Part shown: positions 8,822 through 53,192 of the stretch, in pieces | Layout: every line of letters starts with the position of its first letter | How positions within the stretch are numbered: position 1 is the first letter of the stretch | Source: Alphaproteobacteria bacterium | Lineage (GTDB): Bacteria > Pseudomonadota > Alphaproteobacteria > JAOXRX01 | Direction: 5' to 3' | DNA: 64,000 bases | Assembly (NCBI GenBank): GCA_025800285.1 | Contig: JAOXRX010000037.1 | Span: 52,651-116,650, forward strand | Notes under the pieces: model-generated | The model's database searches: none | Seen by the model: the letters and a program-made list of their open reading frames with translations, nothing else | What the model was told of the DNA's origin: nothing | Translations under genes and position numbers: made by a program

Positions 8822-10639
8822 ATGGAATTTAGAAATATAGCAATCATTGCCCATGTTGATCATGGCAAAACCACTCTTGTTGACAATATGCTGAAACAAA
8901 GTGGAGCTTTTGAAGCTCATAAAGAAATGGCTGACAGAGTTATGGACTCTAACGATTTAGAAAAAGAAAGAGGAATAACAATTTCTGCTAAATGCACTTC
9001 AATTGAGTGGAAAAACTATAGAATCAACATTGTTGACACTCCTGGTCATGCTGACTTTGGAGGAGAAGTAGAAAGAATACTAAGTATGGTTGACGGAGTT
9101 GTATTGCTAGTTGATTCTGCAGAAGGATGCCTACCTCAAACTAAATTTGTTTTAACAAAAGCTTTAGGCTTAGGGCTAAAGCCGATGGTAGTTGTAAACA
9201 AAGTTGATAGAGGAGATGCAAGACCTCACGAAGTTCATGATGAAGTTTTCGATTTATTTGACAAAATTGGAGCGAATGACGAACAACTAGACTTCCCAAC
9301 ACTGTTTGCAGTTGGAAGAGATGGTTGGGCTGTGGAAGATTATGAAAATGATACTCCTAAAGATTTGTCCCCGTTATTTGACTTAATAATAGATCATGTT
9401 CCTGCACCAACTTGTGCTCCTGAAAAACCATTTGCTATGCTAACGACTCTTATAGAATCAGATCCTTATGTTGGCAGAGTTCTAACAGGTAAAGTTTATA
9501 ACGGAAACATAAAAGTTGGCTCTCCTATTAAAGCTATCTCTCTTGATGGTAAGACAATAGAACAAGGCAAGGTTACAAAAATTATGGCTTTCCGTGGAGT
9601 AGAAAGAACATCTGTAAGTGAAGCTATCGCTGGAGACATTATTTCTATAGCTGGATTATCAAAAGCAACTGTAGCAGATACAATTTGTGATTTATCAGTA
9701 GAAAAGGCTTTTGAAGCACACCCAATCGATCCTCCTACACTTTCAATGACATTCTCTGTTAACGATTCTCCGTTCGCAGGTCAAGAAGGAGATAAACTTA
9801 CTTCAAGAGTAATTGCAGCAAGATTATTTAAAGAAGCTGAAAGCAATGTAGCTCTAAAAGTTGAAGAAACTGAAGATAAAAATAGCTTTATTGTATCTGG
9901 TCGTGGAGAACTACAATTAGGAGTGCTAATAGAAACTCTTAGAAGAGAAGGATTCGAACTTTCTATCTCAAGACCTCATGTTGTTTATAAATATGAAGAC
10001 GGTCAAAAACTAGAGCCAATTGAAGAAGTTATTATCGATGTTGAAGATGAGTTCTCTGGTATAGTTATTGAGAAAATGAATAAAAGAAAAGGTATTATGT
10101 CAGACTTAAGACCTTCTGGCGATGGAAAAACAAGAATAACATTCTATACTCCATCAAGAGGTCTAATCGGTTATTTATCTGAGTTTAGAACAGATACAAG
10201 AGGAACTGGTGTTATGAATAGATTATTCCATAACTACGAACCGTTTAAAGGAGAAATTGAGAAATATAGATCAGGAGTTCTAATCTCTATGGGAAACGGA
10301 GTCGCAGCTCCATTTGCTTTATTCAACTTAGAAGCAAGAGGTGTAATGTTCATTGATGCTGGTGTAAAAGTTTATGATGGCATGATTATTGGAGAACATT
10401 CTCAAAGCAATGATTTGGAAGTAAACCCTATTAAAGGTAAGCAACTTACAAACATCCGTGCTTCTGGTAAAGATGAGGCTGTTAAGCTTACAACCCCGAT
10501 TACAATGAGCTTAGAAGAGGCAATTTCATACATTCATGATGATGAATTAGTTGAAGTTACTCCTGAGAGTATGAGACTTAGAAAAAAACATTTAAGTGCT
10601 ATTGACAGGAAAAAAGCTTTAAGAGCTAAAAACAAATAG
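8822..10639 (+). CDS. typA: Translational GTPase TypA/BipA.
   Basis: AHVDHGKTT, DTPGHADF and NKVD motifs. 605 aa, collinear with BipA. Confidence 0.95.
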   Translation: MEFRNIAIIAHVDHGKTTLVDNMLKQSGAFEAHKEMADRVMDSNDLEKERGITISAKCTSIEWKNYRINIVDTPGHADFGGEVERILSMVDGVVLLVDSAEGCLPQTKFVLTKALGLGLKPMVVVNKVDRGDARPHEVHDEVFDLFDKIGANDEQLDFPTLFAVGRDGWAVEDYENDTPKDLSPLFDLIIDHVPAPTCAPEKPFAMLTTLIESDPYVGRVLTGKVYNGNIKVGSPIKAISLDGKTIEQGKVTKIMAFRGVERTSVSEAIAGDIISIAGLSKATVADTICDLSVEKAFEAHPIDPPTLSMTFSVNDSPFAGQEGDKLTSRVIAARLFKEAESNVALKVEETEDKNSFIVSGRGELQLGVLIETLRREGFELSISRPHVVYKYEDGQKLEPIEEVIIDVEDEFSGIVIEKMNKRKGIMSDLRPSGDGKTRITFYTPSRGLIGYLSEFRTDTRGTGVMNRLFHNYEPFKGEIEKYRSGVLISMGNGVAAPFALFNLEARGVMFIDAGVKVYDGMIIGEHSQSNDLEVNPIKGKQLTNIRASGKDEAVKLTTPITMSLEEAISYIHDDELVEVTPESMRLRKKHLSAIDRKKALRAKNK

Positions 10640-10691
10640 ATTATAAAAAAGCTTGCATTTTTTATAAAAATGGAGTAGCTTACTGGAATAA

Positions 10692-10719
10692 ATAAGGAGA
10701 GGTGGCTGAGTGGCTGAAA
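10692..10719 (+). pseudogene. 5' fragment of a tRNA-Ser gene (acceptor 5' strand plus D-loop only). It is a 28-nt direct repeat of the start of the intact tRNA-Ser at 10872-10899.
   Basis: ataaGGAGAGGTGGCTGAGTGGCTGAAA is identical at both sites. The first copy diverges after the D-loop, its D-stem 3' strand does not pair, and no T-arm or acceptor 3' end follows. Confidence 0.6.
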
Positions 10720-10875
10720 ATACGCTTAGTCTTCTCAAGAAGCAAAGCGACTGCAAGAAGACTTAGTCTTTTGCCCGAATACGAGCCTAAAAGGCGAAGT
10801 ACCGAGGGAAATCGTGGAGCTTTTAAGTTAGAGTTAAATAGTTTTTTAAATCTAGCTTCACAATTGGTTATATAA

Positions 10876-10966
10876 GGAGAGGTGGCTGAGTGGCTGAAAG
10901 CGCGCCCCTGCTAAGGGTGTATAGGGCAACCCCCTATCGAGGGTTCGAATCCCTCTCTCTCCGCCA
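10876..10966 (+). tRNA. tRNA-Ser, anticodon GCU (class II with a long variable arm).
   Basis: Manual fold: acceptor GGAGAGG/TCTCTCC, D-arm with GAGTGGCTGAA loop, anticodon loop cuGCUaa, variable arm stem ATAGGG/CCCTAT, T-loop GGTTCGAATCC, discriminator G, then CCA. Confidence 0.85.
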
Positions 10967-11002: not shown

Positions 11003-11210
11003 TTATAGGAGTGAAGTTAGGATTAGAAACTTTATGAGTAAATCTTTGATTTACGAATGGTTCGACAATTGAACTTCATTTCATAGGGCAGAGCCCGCAT
11101 GAAATGTTAGTGATTGCAACTTTTGAAGAAACCTTAGTTTCTGATAAAAGTAATCCCTCTCTTTACATAATATTTTTCAATTTATATTCGATGAATTAGG
11201 AATAGATAAA

Positions 11211-11501
11211 ATAGCGAAGGAAGTTAATAAACATTTCTCAAATCAAGATATAGACATCATTGTCATAGATCCATGGAGAAATATCTACGAACAAGGATTG
11301 TCAGGAAAAAGCTCTGTCGATCCAAATGCTGATATTATAGCTTTTTTCAAAAGCCGTATTGAAAGTTTGCGAGAAAAAACAAATCCGAATGCTGGAATTG
11401 TGATAGCTCACCATACAAATAAGAACCAAGAATTAGAACACAAAATATTATTAATATATATATTTGTTTTTTCATGGTTGTATTATTACGACCTTTTATA
11501 A
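11211..11501 (+). pseudogene. C-terminal fragment (about 95 aa) of a RecA-fold NTPase of the phage/plasmid primase-helicase (AAA_25/RepA-like) type. It lacks the Walker A N-terminus and is a mobile-element remnant.
   Basis: The frame is open from 11211 with no ATG until a TTG at 11298. It reads ...DIDIIVIDPWRNIY...ADIIAFFKSRIESLREKTNPNAGIVIAHHTNK (Walker-B-like hhhhD, sensor HHTxK). No cognate N-terminal half lies upstream. Confidence 0.45.
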
Positions 11502-11514
11502 TTTAAAATTCTAT

Positions 11515-11895
11515 TCATAACGAAAGTTTGTAATTAATATATATGCTAAAAGACAATATAAAATTGTAATACATAAAGTATATTATAGCCATGCAAAAAT
11601 AATAACCAATACATATGAAGCGACTTTTTAGTTTATTCTTAATATCTAAAACATTATTTTTTGTTTTCCAAAATATAAAGGAATACAAAAAAACAATCAA
11701 AAATATCATAAGTAAAGAAAAATAAACATTAGGGCAATCCCCTTTTATACATACATATTTGTTATAATAATCTTCGTTAAATATAGAAATCATGTAATTT
11801 TTTATGGATATTATACTAATTGTTATAAAACCGAAAAGCCCTAGTATAAAAATTATGCTTGGTATATTATTTGCAATTTTTCTAAATTTATTCAT
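11515..11895 (-). CDS. Small polytopic membrane protein (126 aa, 3-4 TM), immediately downstream of the toxin-like gene. Candidate immunity protein.
   Basis: Hydrophobic segments IIFILGLFGFITISIISI, VYFSLLMIFLIVFLYSFIFW and FICIGYYFCMAIIYFMYYNFILSF. The gap to the upstream gene is 38 nt. Confidence 0.5.
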   Translation of the reverse strand: MNKFRKIANNIPSIIFILGLFGFITISIISIKNYMISIFNEDYYNKYVCIKGDCPNVYFSLLMIFLIVFLYSFIFWKTKNNVLDIKNKLKSRFICIGYYFCMAIIYFMYYNFILSFSIYINYKLSL

Positions 11896-11933
11896 AATAA
11901 TAATTGTTTAACATATAGGCTTATATAATGCAA

Positions 11934-12557
11934 TTATTTTTTATATTGAACTATTAAATCAATAGTTCCTATTTCTGATATTGATCTAAATTCTTCTAAA
12001 AAACTTTTTATTTCAGATGTTAGATCTATGCATCCTATAGAACCAGGATATGTACCTCCATGGATAGAAAACCCACTTCTTCCTTTTGTATCAGTTCCCT
12101 TTTTGGGATCAAGCCATACTCTTCCATCTCCCCATGACTTTTCCCCTCCCGGAAAAGTTCCACCATAAAATATACCTTTAAATTTATCCCAATCACTTCT
12201 ATTATCAGTATACTGAATATCAGGTCTTACTTTATATTCTCCTTCAGGAATTGGACCTTTATTTTTTTTATCAGTATCTTCAGGATGTTGATATCCTGGT
12301 TTACCAGAAACACCATTCCAAGATTTAATAACCTCTTCCGCCCAAATGAGTTTTAAAATTTTGCCATTAAATAATAAATAAGGTTTTCCTTCTCTTTGAT
12401 ATATTTTCTTTAAATGGCATCTACAATTTGGATGTATAGGTAGTTTAGGAGCATCTTGCATTTTATCAAACCTTTTTCCTTGATGTTCTTTGCATTTATC
12501 ACAAATATTGTCTCCTTCGTTTTGATAAACCCAATCATAAATTTCATATTGTTGCAT
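11934..12557 (-). CDS. Candidate polymorphic toxin. The N-terminus carries a zinc-ribbon-like segment with the MuF (phage head-morphogenesis) C-terminal motif HPNCRC. The C-terminal domain resembles an L,D-transpeptidase (YkuD/Tlde1-like).
   Basis: ICDKCKEHQGKRFDKMQDAPKLPIHPNCRCHL, then GPIPEGEY, then FSIHGGTYPGSIGCIDL (LDT catalytic His ... S-x-G-C-I). The start overlaps the upstream gene's stop as TAATG. Confidence 0.6.
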   Translation of the reverse strand: MQQYEIYDWVYQNEGDNICDKCKEHQGKRFDKMQDAPKLPIHPNCRCHLKKIYQREGKPYLLFNGKILKLIWAEEVIKSWNGVSGKPGYQHPEDTDKKNKGPIPEGEYKVRPDIQYTDNRSDWDKFKGIFYGGTFPGGEKSWGDGRVWLDPKKGTDTKGRSGFSIHGGTYPGSIGCIDLTSEIKSFLEEFRSISEIGTIDLIVQYKK

Positions 12558-13129
12558 TATTTTTCTCCTTTTCTTGAGATTGGTAAATTATTATTTACTT
12601 CTGTTAATTTTTTATCTAAATTAATTTTCTTTTTCCCCCAGCAGTATTCAGCATAAACATTGTTAAAAGCTCCATCCTTAATAGCTCTTTTAATTTCTAA
12701 CAAAGGATAAAAAGAGCAAATTTTTTCTAAAAAAGATTTAGTTTTATTACCTAAAATTCCATCCTCTTTTAGAGCTATGATTTCTGTTATTTGATGTTCT
12801 TTTTTATATCCTGTGAGAATATTTAATCCTCTTTGCAAATCTTTTAAAGCTTGTTCTTTTCCTACTCTCTTTGAATGAGTCTGCAGAAATTCATTTAATT
12901 CAGATATTTTCTCTTTAGTTGAAGAGGGTTTTATTACTTTATTCTCTTTTATTGCTACCACAGGAGGTTCTTCTTCAATTACTTGCTTTTTTAGTTCTGG
13001 TTTTTTAGCGACTTTCTTTATAGGCCTTTCTTCAATACCATATTCTCTTTTTAAAAAGGATTTAATCTCTTGCTCAAAAAGGTGTTGTTTATAAGCCTTT
13101 TTAATATTTTCATAATTAAAATTTATCAT
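12557..13129 (-). CDS. Hypothetical protein (190 aa) with a C-terminal peptidoglycan-binding (PG_binding_1-like) segment. First gene of the cassette.
   Basis: ...QITEIIALKEDGILGNKTKSFLEKI matches the DGifGpkT core of PG-binding domains. Lys/Glu-rich N-terminal half. Translationally coupled (TAATG) to the downstream gene. Confidence 0.5.
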   Translation of the reverse strand: MINFNYENIKKAYKQHLFEQEIKSFLKREYGIEERPIKKVAKKPELKKQVIEEEPPVVAIKENKVIKPSSTKEKISELNEFLQTHSKRVGKEQALKDLQRGLNILTGYKKEHQITEIIALKEDGILGNKTKSFLEKICSFYPLLEIKRAIKDGAFNNVYAEYCWGKKKINLDKKLTEVNNNLPISRKGEK

Positions 13130-13145
13130 TATATTTGCTCCAATA

Positions 13146-13172
13146 AAAAAGCCCTGTCTTGCGACAGAGCAT
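13146..13172 (-). terminator. Minus-strand rho-independent terminator just upstream of the toxin cassette. It would insulate the cassette from read-through.
   Basis: Read on the minus strand: GCTCTGTCgcaaGACAGGGC followed by TTTTTTT. Confidence 0.45.
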
Positions 13173-13350
13173 AGGTATTTCTTTTTCTAATTACCTTCTA
13201 TAGGACATTATTCCTAACTTGTCAAGTAAAAAATAATTTATTTGTTTTATTCGCTTTATTGTCTTTTTTGCTGGACTTTCTCTGAAAGTTATGGCTTTGT
13301 TGTGTTGTGCCGCGACTCGAGTCGCTAAAACAACTAAACCAGGAGGATAT

Positions 13351-51452: not shown

Positions 51453-53192
51453 ATGAGTTTATCTGTATTAAAGCAAAAATGGGAATTTAAAGAAGCATCT
51501 GAAAGAGATGTTTTACACCTTTCGCAAGTCAAAGGCATAGATGCAAACATAGCTTCTCTTTTAGTATCAAGAGACATAACTGTTGATAATTATGACAAAT
51601 TCATAAACCCTACACTAAAAGATCAAATGCCAGATCCATACACATTAAAAGATTGCGAAAAAGCTTGTAAAATAATCTGCGACTCTATTGAGAAAAAAGA
51701 AAAAATAGTAATATATGGAGATTATGATGTAGATGGAGGAACAGCTACATCTGTATTTATAAATTTTTTAAAACAGTTAGATACAAATGTAGATTTTTAT
51801 ATACCAAATAAGTTAAATGAAGGCTATGGTCCAAATGCAGAAGTTTTTAAAAGACTCGAAAAAGACACAGATTTAATAGTAACTGTTGACTGCGGAACAT
51901 CTGCTTTTGATGTTATAGATAATACAAATATAAAAGTGGTTATAACAGATCATCATATGGCAGAAGAAAGGCTTCCTAAAGCTGAAGCAATTGTAAACCC
52001 TAAAAGACTTGATGACAACTCTGGACTTGATGGCATAGCTGGTGTTGCTGTTGCATTTTTAGTTTGTGTTGCTGTAAATAGAGAGCTTGAAAATCGTGGT
52101 TATTTCAAAAATAGAGAAAAACCTAATTTAGTATACCTATTAGATTTAGTTGCTTTAGGAACTATATGTGATGTTATGAAACTAGTAGATATAAATAGAG
52201 TTTTTGTGTCTCAAGGGCTAAAGATTCTAAACAAACAAAGCAATTGCGGTTTAAAAGCTTTAATAGATTTATTAGACATAAACAAAAAGATAGACACTTA
52301 TCATTTAGGTTATGTTTTTGGCCCAAGAATAAATGCTGGAGGCAGATTAGGAGAGTCTTTCTTAGCAACAAAATTAATGACTTCAAAAAATTATAATGAA
52401 GCTTTTGAAATTGCTAAAAAGCTTAATAGCCTAAACGAAGATAGAAAAGAAATAGAGAGTCGAATACATGAAGAAGCTCTAGCCTATTTAAGCGATGAAA
52501 TTGAAAACAGAGAGCTAAAAAGCAATCTTTCATTTGTATATAATCCTGATTGGCATAGTGGAGTTTTAGGAATTGTTGCATCAAGACTAAAAGAAAAATT
52601 TAATAAGCCTTCTTTTGTATTATGCTGTGAAAAAGGAGTTGCTTATGGTTCAGGAAGGTCTGTAAGTGGTGTAGATATTGGAGCCATAGTAGTACTTGGA
52701 AAACAAAAAGGTCTTATAAAAGACGGAGGCGGTCATAAAATGGCTGCAGGTTTCTCTTGTGATATAGATAGAATCGAAGAAGTTAAGAACTTTATAAGTA
52801 AACAAATAGCAAAAGCTACTGATGGCAAAGAAATAGTAAAAACTTTAAAAATAGATTCTGTAATATCTATAAAAGGAGCGAACAAAGATTTAATAGAAGC
52901 TATAGATTTAATGTCTCCATTTGGGAATGGAAATCCTCAACCTAGATTCTGCTTTCAAGAATTAAAAATAGCCAAAACAATCGTATTAGCTGGCAAACAT
53001 ATCAAATGTTTTCTAAGTTCCCCATATACAAAAGGAACCCTAGAAGCCATTGCCTTTAATGTTATAGATACAAAAATAGGAGACTTCCTATTAGATAAGT
53101 CCAACAATCCAATATCAGTTGTTGGAACTTTAAATACAAACTCTTGGAACGGTCGAGAAACAATTCAATTAATTATAGAAGATGCAAAATAA
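51453..53192 (+). CDS. recJ: Single-stranded-DNA-specific exonuclease RecJ.
   Basis: DHH motifs (IYGDYDVDGGTA, VDCGTS, ITDHH) and the DHHA1 GGGH motif (DGGGHKMAAG). Confidence 0.93.
   Translation: MSLSVLKQKWEFKEASERDVLHLSQVKGIDANIASLLVSRDITVDNYDKFINPTLKDQMPDPYTLKDCEKACKIICDSIEKKEKIVIYGDYDVDGGTATSVFINFLKQLDTNVDFYIPNKLNEGYGPNAEVFKRLEKDTDLIVTVDCGTSAFDVIDNTNIKVVITDHHMAEERLPKAEAIVNPKRLDDNSGLDGIAGVAVAFLVCVAVNRELENRGYFKNREKPNLVYLLDLVALGTICDVMKLVDINRVFVSQGLKILNKQSNCGLKALIDLLDINKKIDTYHLGYVFGPRINAGGRLGESFLATKLMTSKNYNEAFEIAKKLNSLNEDRKEIESRIHEEALAYLSDEIENRELKSNLSFVYNPDWHSGVLGIVASRLKEKFNKPSFVLCCEKGVAYGSGRSVSGVDIGAIVVLGKQKGLIKDGGGHKMAAGFSCDIDRIEEVKNFISKQIAKATDGKEIVKTLKIDSVISIKGANKDLIEAIDLMSPFGNGNPQPRFCFQELKIAKTIVLAGKHIKCFLSSPYTKGTLEAIAFNVIDTKIGDFLLDKSNNPISVVGTLNTNSWNGRETIQLIIEDAK

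Follow-up and report, generated by a model that had tools for sequence, protein, structure and literature searches.

Predicted mini-MuF toxin cassettes outside prophages: a Tlde1-type peptidase gene with a coupled partner and a candidate immunity gene in an uncultured alphaproteobacterium

What is the role of a three-gene cassette in which the remnant of a phage head-morphogenesis protein is joined to an L,D-peptidase domain and followed by a small membrane protein? This question is raised by a locus in the metagenome-assembled genome (MAG) of an uncultured Alphaproteobacteria bacterium (GenBank assembly GCA_025800285.1, locus tags OIF36_*). The locus lies on the 247.8-kb contig JAOXRX010000037.1, from which a stretch of 64,000 nucleotides (positions 52,651 to 116,650 of the forward strand) was analysed; this stretch is called the window, and all positions for the cassette and its surroundings refer to it. 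We name the three genes g1, g2 and g3 in their order along the minus strand. An initial annotation, made from the sequence letters, had described them as a peptidoglycan-binding protein, a MuF-linked L,D-transpeptidase-like toxin candidate and a membrane immunity candidate. The reading that we favour, as probable but with ample room for doubt, sees in the locus a small island of toxin and immunity genes that belongs to a modular (polymorphic) cassette family, with g2 as effector, g3 as immunity gene, and g1 plus a MuF-derived stub at the start of g2 as front end. The features on which the argument turns are as follows.

12557-13129, minus strand: g1, conserved leader or partner protein of 190 residues (NCBI MCV6599092.1, OIF36_01230)
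11934-12557, minus strand: g2, protein of 207 residues (NCBI MCV6599091.1)
12417-12557, minus strand: g2 residues 1-47, the 'mini-MuF' module
11937-12386, minus strand: g2 residues ~58-207, Tlde1/DUF2778 L,D-peptidase domain (YkuD fold), predicted peptidoglycan-targeting toxin
12030-12032, minus strand: codon of the predicted catalytic Cys176 of g2, in the motif H166-x6-S173-I-G175-C176
11515-11895, minus strand: g3, protein of 126 residues, inner-membrane protein and immunity candidate

The gene structure described initially is present in the sequence. The three genes share the minus strand, g1 and g2 meet in a TAATG at 12557 where stop and start share one nucleotide, g2 and g3 are separated by 38 nucleotides, and a terminator-like hairpin precedes g1. 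The motifs ALKEDGILGNKTKSF, HPNCRC, GPIPEGEY and FSIHGGTYPGSIGCIDL can all be read in the translations of the cassette's open reading frames (ORFs).

The C-terminal part of g2 is a Tlde1-type L,D-peptidase domain with a YkuD fold. Pfam assigns residues 84-184 to Tlde1_dom (PF10908) with 32.7 bits against a gathering cut-off of 30.1 (E=1.1e-7), NCBI names the product DUF2778 domain-containing, and most of the 154 homologs carry the PF10908 annotation. In the case of the AlphaFold2 model, which has a predicted local distance difference test score (pLDDT) of 90.6, the top three Foldseek matches are structures of Salmonella Tlde1a (7uo3, 7uma and 7uo8; E=1.5e-7, target template-modelling score 0.61), followed by B. 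subtilis YkuD (1y7m) and L,D-transpeptidases (Ldts). The earlier assignment to YkuD and Tlde1 was therefore sound as to Tlde1 and the fold, but not as to the YkuD family model itself: PF03734 was not reported by Pfam for g2 at E<=1, and the link to YkuD runs via the fold and Tlde1_dom. Identity with Tlde1a is ~22%, and phmmer against the PDB gave chance matches only, e.g. a coronavirus nucleocapsid at E=0.055.

The catalytic set of g2 is intact. In an alignment of 42 homologs R160, H166, S173, G175 and C176 are invariant, and they correspond, mapped via PMC9638812, to R115, H121, S128, G130 and C131 of Tlde1a. In Tlde1a these residues build the catalytic and exchange pockets and are required for toxicity (PMC9638812). 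The Tlde1 region that follows HPNCRC in g2 comprises 160 residues. At the other end of the protein, the N-terminus MQQYEIYDWVYQNEGD has no hydrophobic signal, and neither a signal peptide nor a lipobox was found. Regarding a link to type VI secretion systems (T6SS), the genes scanned within ~5 kb on either side of the cassette are housekeeping genes, and g2 shows no Rhs or PAAR fusion.

The segment in front of the toxin domain follows the pattern W/Y-x-W...C19-x2-C22...G27...P40-x-H42-P-N-C45-x-C47, and its end, HPNCRC, had been taken initially for a MuF signature. Residues 6-49 align with Phage_Mu_F (PF04233) at 17.2 bits against a cut-off of 29.6, covering profile positions 64-111 of 112 only. 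The match to TIGR01641 has an E value of 6e-4 and 20.1 bits against a cut-off of 39.65, and several PHROG head-morphogenesis and minor-head families are reached at 3e-5 to 1e-3. By tblastn the stub finds the last ~49 residues of the 254-residue MuF protein of Clostridium phage BG3P (E=3e-5), whose gene comes after terminase and portal. Related stubs behave in the same way: all score 17-24 bits against PF04233 and align to the same profile end. In 12 of them C-x2-C...G...P-x-HPNC-x-C is invariant, and a search with the profile of these 12 retrieved only proteins of at most 104 residues, most of them already annotated with PF04233.

Homology of g2 residues ~1-47 to the extreme C-terminal MuF/SPP1-gp7 core is well supported by these matches. 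The scores stay below both model thresholds, however, and g2 therefore does not qualify as a full MuF domain protein by PF04233 or TIGR01641. The stub probably forms a small Zn-binding knuckle. The toxin domain starts directly after HPNC-x-C, which is also where the junction lies in canonical MuF proteins, and no full-length MuF-Tlde1 protein was found among the 120 g2 homologs listed.

The cassette belongs to a modular family that lies outside prophages and spans several phyla. The g1 family has 7 proteins, and this single MAG holds three g1 paralogs, OIF36_04700 among them. A leader made of g1 and the MuF stub was found in at least nine distinct loci from MAGs of Alphaproteobacteria and Gastranaerophilales; in all nine g1-led loci the junction between the two genes is tight, ranging from a 14-nucleotide overlap to a 4-nucleotide gap. 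When the window is compared to the loci that we number L015, L008 and L007, the C-terminal domains of g1 are 52-56% identical and the stubs 41-57%, whereas the cargo shows no similarity. Similarity between cassettes thus stops right after HPNC-x-C. The related g1-led loci are the following.

L015: g1 62% identical to the window g1; the next gene encodes the stub plus Phage_lysozyme
L008: stub plus Phage_lysozyme (E=3e-23), then a Sel1 protein with a signal-peptide-like N-terminus
L007: second cassette of this MAG, with a 97-residue stub protein, then an SAA-like protein encoded separately and small membrane ORFs rich in Cys
L009, L010, L011 (same contig as L013), L012 and L014: a g1-like gene overlaps a gene for stub, coiled coil and SAA-like domain

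The loci L009 to L014 belong to MAGs of Gastranaerophilales type, to a bin labelled 'Muribaculaceae' and to a Kiruna bin, assignments that may be wrong. Their SAA-like cargo was recognised by Pfam in L010 and L011, as also in L007, and by sequence in L009, L012 and L014, and membrane proteins with a Cys-rich ectodomain lie downstream of the stub-SAA-like gene.

Three cargo classes can thus be distinguished, namely Tlde1 (window), Phage_lysozyme (L008, L015) and SAA-like, and they are matched by three classes of downstream genes. The downstream genes go with the cargo and not with g1. Proteins of the g3 type with three transmembrane (TM) segments follow Tlde1 with or without g1, the Sel1 protein follows lysozyme, and TM proteins with Cys-rich ectodomains follow the SAA-like cargo. 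Downstream genes that track the cargo in this way are what one expects of a polymorphic toxin system in which each toxin has its cognate immunity gene. The g1-led cassettes show the features by which such systems are recognised (PMC3482391), namely a constant N-terminal part, exchanged C-terminal domains, a sharp breakpoint and, for each cargo, a candidate immunity gene of its own. Each of the three cargo classes is accompanied by immunity candidates of the membrane or periplasm, which suggests a family specialised in envelope targets.

Several details of the family are worth recording at this point. The SAA-like domain, the third cargo type, matches PF00277 just above threshold and carries the motif YH-x-x-AN (L007, 2538-2903; L010, 1312-2115; L011, 5542-6396; L014, 5338-6186, each in the numbering of its locus). 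It is always followed by membrane proteins whose Cys-rich ectodomain reads C-x-D-x-G-x-C-x-EGL...C-D-M. Locus L004 holds tandem mini-MuF genes (5446-6501 and 8001-8891), one with a C-terminus of 290 residues and the other with a Tlde1 domain, each followed by its own set of membrane-anchored ORFs, i.e. a small toxin array. In L001 (7641-7970 and 8001-8756) the upstream partner is of a different family and is encoded by a separate gene of 109 residues. In L017 (121-282 and 279-1247) this L001-type partner is partly fused to the toxin P0004 (shared segment E=2e-6); the upstream partner and the toxin can therefore be one polypeptide.

The third gene of the cassette, g3, is a real gene and travels with the Tlde1 cargo type. 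It is absent from the NCBI annotation of the MAG and is on record in a Logan assembly only. It encodes three hydrophobic or TM segments with a predicted N-in topology, arranged as a basic N-terminus, TM1, a loop of ~24 residues with C49 and C54, TM2, a basic cytoplasmic loop (77-92) and TM3. By the positive-inside rule, the two-Cys loop is predicted to be periplasmic. The closest g2 homolog, P0002 at locus L016 (43% identity), is followed after 4 nucleotides by a 124-residue membrane protein that matches g3 by BLASTP (E=4e-8, 36% identity over 94 residues) and has the same layout from the basic N-terminus and the two-Cys loop to TM3. The idea that the small membrane protein is a partner of the toxin, already put forward initially, gains from this homolog, which behaves as a cognate partner should. 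The more distant mini-MuF-Tlde1 genes P0003 and P0004 (L001, L017) precede one or two 3-TM proteins whose 'DDYY..C..C' loop is similar by eye; family-level homology for g3 is claimed only with the L016 protein. A HMMER search of 1.84 billion representatives returned no g3 relatives beyond g3 itself. A TM-anchored immunity protein, Tai7, is already known in the DUF2778 superfamily. The significant homolog and the topology together suggest that g3 may serve as the immunity protein of g2.

In the case of g1, a conserved N-terminus (MINFN) and a conserved helical C-terminal domain (~71-181) enclose a variable, low-complexity middle. The AlphaFold model is all-helical with a pLDDT of 68, the C-terminal domain lying mostly at 80-90. 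Searches gave no Pfam match at E<=1 and no PHROG, NCBIfam or PADLOC assignment, so that a role in anti-phage defence finds no PADLOC match either. The g1 profile found nothing among PDB chain sequences at E<=10, no signal peptide was detected, and no g1 relative was found among the 2.9 million viral contigs of IMG/VR. The nearest folds, a weak resemblance, are SagA/TtsA-type 'secretion activator' muramidases (GH108/PG_binding_3). A peptidoglycan-binding-like helical bundle is a lead that this model offers and may be followed as such.

Two more definite identities were tried for g1 and rejected. The first, PG_binding_1, was the initial annotation's choice and had to be dropped: only two of the seven family members reach PF01471, at E=0.023, and with true PG_binding_1 domains, taken from Tlde1 homologs, hhalign gave a probability of 0.3%. 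The second, that g1 is the missing N-terminal part of a split MuF protein, obtained 0.9% from hhalign against canonical phage MuF, and neither BFVD nor the PHROGs gave MuF-like matches.

These results bear on the most ordinary explanation of the locus, a housekeeping L,D-transpeptidase whose PG_binding_1-YkuD gene was split by a frameshift. The N-termini of g2 homologs vary between PG_binding_1, LysM, DUF3892 and Phage_Mu_F; those with PG_binding_1 or LysM would fit such an origin, and some of them are auto-named 'L,D-transpeptidase family protein'. The DG-x-x-G-x-x-T motif of g1 would fit it as well. On the other hand, g1 lacks a PG_binding_1 match, the segment from g1 to the catalytic domain is a MuF core and not a linker, and g2 has neither the signal peptide nor the lipobox of an exported enzyme. 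Moreover, Pfam gives Tlde1_dom instead of YkuD, and the structure search places the T6SS toxin Tlde1a first. Above all, the same tightly coupled split of g1 and g2 recurs with unrelated cargo in 8 distinct related loci, which is why this explanation, doubted from the beginning, is rejected here as essentially excluded.

A second explanation takes the peptidoglycan enzymes at face value. In a phage-type lysis or release cassette, g2 or the lysozyme would be the wall-degrading enzyme, g3 a holin-like protein through which the leaderless enzyme crosses the inner membrane, and g1 a GH108-like wall-binding helper, with cell lysis or a type-10-like release as the outcome. Peptidoglycan enzymes make up two of the three cargo types, g3 is small with three TM segments, the module is of phage ancestry, and the nearest folds of g1 are muramidases of a type that acts in the assembly of type IV secretion systems (PMC8334348) and in release by type X secretion systems (PMC13284979). 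Set against this are the SAA-like cargo and the downstream genes that change with the cargo, and we regard a lysis cassette as very unlikely.

The favoured reading, a toxin-immunity island, supposes that the genes are expressed. The strong Shine-Dalgarno sequence of g2 (AAGGAG) is located within the 3' end of g1, and g1 has a strong one of its own (GGAG). Ahead of g1 stands the hairpin already mentioned.

13151-13170, minus strand: intrinsic-terminator-like hairpin, GC-rich stem of 8 bp with a GCAA loop, then T6; 21 nucleotides upstream of the g1 ATG

A promoter-like sequence, TTGACA-17 nt-TATAGA, lies at 13197-13225 on the same strand; the hairpin follows after ~25 nucleotides, and g1 only afterwards. 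It was missed by a consensus scan because its -10 hexamer ends in A. Possible readings of promoter and hairpin are a leader or attenuator of short length, a small RNA, or simply the 3' end of a gene that once lay upstream. The GC content is 20-33% at the cassette and 30-39% in its flanks.

The surroundings of the cassette combine core genes with traces of mobile elements. The flanks of the window cassette hold LysR, a DEAD helicase, BipA, tRNA-Ser, an LCM-like methyltransferase, IspA, RluD and LigA. Two features lie close to g3.

10876-10966, plus strand: tRNA-Ser(GCT), convergent with the cassette, 549 nucleotides from the g3 stop
11196-11441, plus strand: truncated AAA_25-type ATPase fragment of 82 codons, between the tRNA and the cassette

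The tRNA-Ser(GCT) probably marks an insertion hot spot. A tRNA gene lies within ~600 nucleotides in 5 of 9 g1-led cassettes: L010 shows the same tRNA-Ser(GCT) arrangement, and other tRNAs adjoin the cassettes of L011, L012 and L007, the last one being partial, convergent and at the locus end. The ATPase fragment matches positions 140-195 of 195 of PF13481 (16.9 bits), and by tblastn it is similar to Wolbachia phage WO genes (E=4e-8) and to AAA ATPases of a plasmid collection (E=9e-13). The site therefore once hosted a mobile element. A search for the tRNA 3'-end repeat of an island boundary gave only a duplicate of the 5' end. This is a 31-nucleotide direct repeat (30 of 31 identical; 10689-10719 and 10869-10899) of the 5' end of tRNA-Ser(GCT) and 7 upstream bases, with the extra copy 180 nucleotides upstream of the intact gene, and it may have been left by an old rearrangement or integration event at this tRNA.

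No portal, terminase or capsid genes were seen beside the window cassette or the related loci, where some of the neighbours were run through Pfam, and the window cassette thus does not sit in a prophage head module next to portal or terminase. Viral Tlde1 proteins were found at 24 loci; the two inspected, in which the match reaches furthest toward the g2 N-terminus, have PG_binding-like N-termini and not the stub. These two are on large viral contigs (L030 and L033, 5782-6867), where a 361-residue protein with PG_binding-like N-terminus and Tlde1 domain is followed by a protein of ~200 residues with a signal-peptide-like N-terminus. Phages therefore also carry Tlde1 domains, in a different architecture. 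At L014, on a 220-kb contig, a 517-residue protein that resembles an AAA-type ATPase by eye and a Dam-like methylase gene (1981-4405) directly precede the g1-led cassette, which gives this neighbourhood a defence- or mobile-island flavour.

Such traces recall the initial proposal of a relic of a decayed prophage. The phage-WO-like fragment and the tRNA next to the cassette agree with it, but the distribution as a modular family outside prophages and in several phyla does not. A related explanation is a silent orphan module, left by a decayed mobile element, in which the stub serves only to provide homology, so that the module can recombine into the full-length muf gene of a phage or prophage. 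Orphan cdiA-CT/cdiI and rhs-CT modules of contact-dependent inhibition (CDI) and Rhs systems are stored, non-deployed toxin-immunity modules of this kind; they likewise have a variable pair behind a short conserved piece, several copies per genome and a sharp breakpoint at a motif. What is retained of MuF, the last ~47 residues, is precisely the part found in front of the toxin in canonical MuF toxins, and the tRNA and truncated gene adjoining the cassette, the terminator immediately upstream of g1 and the lack of delivery machinery nearby would also suit an orphan. However, g2 has its own ATG besides the strong AAGGAG, its catalytic residues are all intact, and the coupled pair of g1 and stub is kept across phyla and cargo types. 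This conservation with coupled junctions argues for an expressed two-protein unit. In contrast to the CDI and Rhs orphans, the module here starts at a codon of its own behind a strong ribosome-binding site, and its co-translated partner is conserved; it looks expressed and not like a promoterless fragment. The missing full-length counterpart among the listed g2 homologs and the lack of g1 in viral contigs do not fit a recombination substrate for phage genes either, and we judge a silent module clearly unlikely.

Returning to the toxin-immunity island, its parts might work together as follows. The Tlde1-type L,D-carboxypeptidase/transpeptidase domain of g2 would attack the stem peptides of peptidoglycan in the periplasm. 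From its anchor in the inner membrane, g3 would present the two-Cys loop to the periplasm and thereby block g2. The translationally coupled g1 and the MuF stub would form the constant front end, both as trafficking or adaptor part and as a recombination handle behind which toxin-immunity modules are swapped. As to delivery, our preferred guess is that g1 and the stub dock the toxin on a separate portal-capsid of phage or gene transfer agent (GTA) type, or that release is assisted by a muramidase. This account builds on the domain identities, the catalytic residues, the co-inheritance of g3 and Tlde1, the breakpoint at HPNC-x-C, the g1-stub pair in different phyla and the non-prophage context.

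A number of observations weigh against it. Both g1 and g2 lack a signal peptide, and no secretion-system, portal or capsid gene was seen beside the loci; there is therefore no visible route for a periplasm-acting toxin out of the producer or into the target. The position of Tlde1a H129 is taken by Ile174 in g2, whose activity may therefore differ from that of Tlde1a. No obvious Shine-Dalgarno sequence precedes the start of g3. The one detectable g3 homolog, beside P0002, was found by inspection of the context, and the membrane proteins of L001 and L017 share a similar layout with g3 without a significant BLASTP match. The mini-MuF-Tlde1 loci L016, L004 and L001 lack g1, which is therefore not obligatory for the Tlde1 toxin type. 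Finally, the entire analysis is computational, and the family is small and comes nearly entirely from MAGs and short contigs.

The delivery question can be taken one step further. The pair of g1 and the 47-residue MuF core could be a prophage-independent trafficking module for envelope toxins in diderms (Alphaproteobacteria, Gastranaerophilales). Either toxins encoded on the chromosome would be docked in trans, by way of the stub, on the portal or capsid of a phage or GTA, co-resident or infecting, or a GH108-like g1 would drive a muramidase-assisted, type-10-like release. We offer this as a speculation that is rather unlikely to hold in full.

Comparison with known systems places the cassette between several of them. 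With MuF polymorphic toxins (PMC5576092; Apk2 and Bxa, PMC11699363) it shares a MuF-derived N-terminal module, a variable C-terminal toxin of at least 100 residues and a downstream ORF of fewer than 150 residues. It differs firstly in the N-terminal module, of which only the last ~47 residues are kept, below the Pfam threshold, whereas the characterised toxins have an N-terminal domain of ~320 residues; Apk2 and Bxa have complete MuF domains, are encoded in prophage head modules and act on cytoplasmic targets (PMC11699363). Secondly, the conserved non-MuF partner g1 precedes the toxin gene. Thirdly, the Tlde1 and lysozyme cargo is envelope-targeting by prediction and comes with membrane or periplasmic immunity candidates. 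In the MuF catalogue of Jamet et al. 2017 (PMC5576092) there is no mention of a toxin domain of the DUF2778, peptidoglycan or lysozyme kind, and Zhang et al. 2012 (PMC3482391) list Tox-LD-peptidase with T2SS (type II secretion), T6SS and TcdB/TcaC trafficking but not with MuF. In the literature searched, no mention was found of MuF combined with Tlde1, DUF2778 or PF10908. The arrangement had been suspected to be undescribed, and it is indeed missing from the MuF and polymorphic-toxin catalogues consulted.

With the Tlde1 (Tae5-7/DUF2778) T6SS effectors of Salmonella and other Proteobacteria (10.1101/2020.02.18.954545; PMC9638812), g2 shares the domain family, the fold, the catalytic R/H/S/G/C set and an adjacent small immunity-type gene. 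Those effectors are described as stand-alone domains or Rhs fusions, and the MuF stub and the g1 partner are both new for the Tlde1 family; g3 is unrelated to the Tlde1 immunity proteins DUF2195/Tldi1. Regarding the GH108/PG_binding_3 muramidases (Brucella SagA, 7dnp; Salmonella TtsA-like Sen1395, 6v3z; NMB1012, 2ikb), g1 has no detectable sequence similarity to them, and in its model, which is of moderate confidence, no catalytic Glu/Asp/Thr loop is identifiable. This is a resemblance and not membership.

MuF toxins are a recognised polymorphic toxin family that is poorly understood, also in how its members reach their targets. The core of ~47 residues gives a minimal testable definition of the MuF part that matters for toxin handling, and the cassette family challenges the view that injection into the cytoplasm, along with phage DNA, is the only fate of MuF cargo. 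If the pair of g1 and stub is indeed a trafficking module, interbacterial toxins would have a new delivery route, and MuF-type cargo would for the first time be seen to act on the cell wall and not in the cytoplasm. Tlde1 effectors, so far cargo of T6SS or Rhs, gain an architecture and a candidate immunity family, and the family shows toxin-cassette exchange between uncultured Alphaproteobacteria and Melainabacteria.

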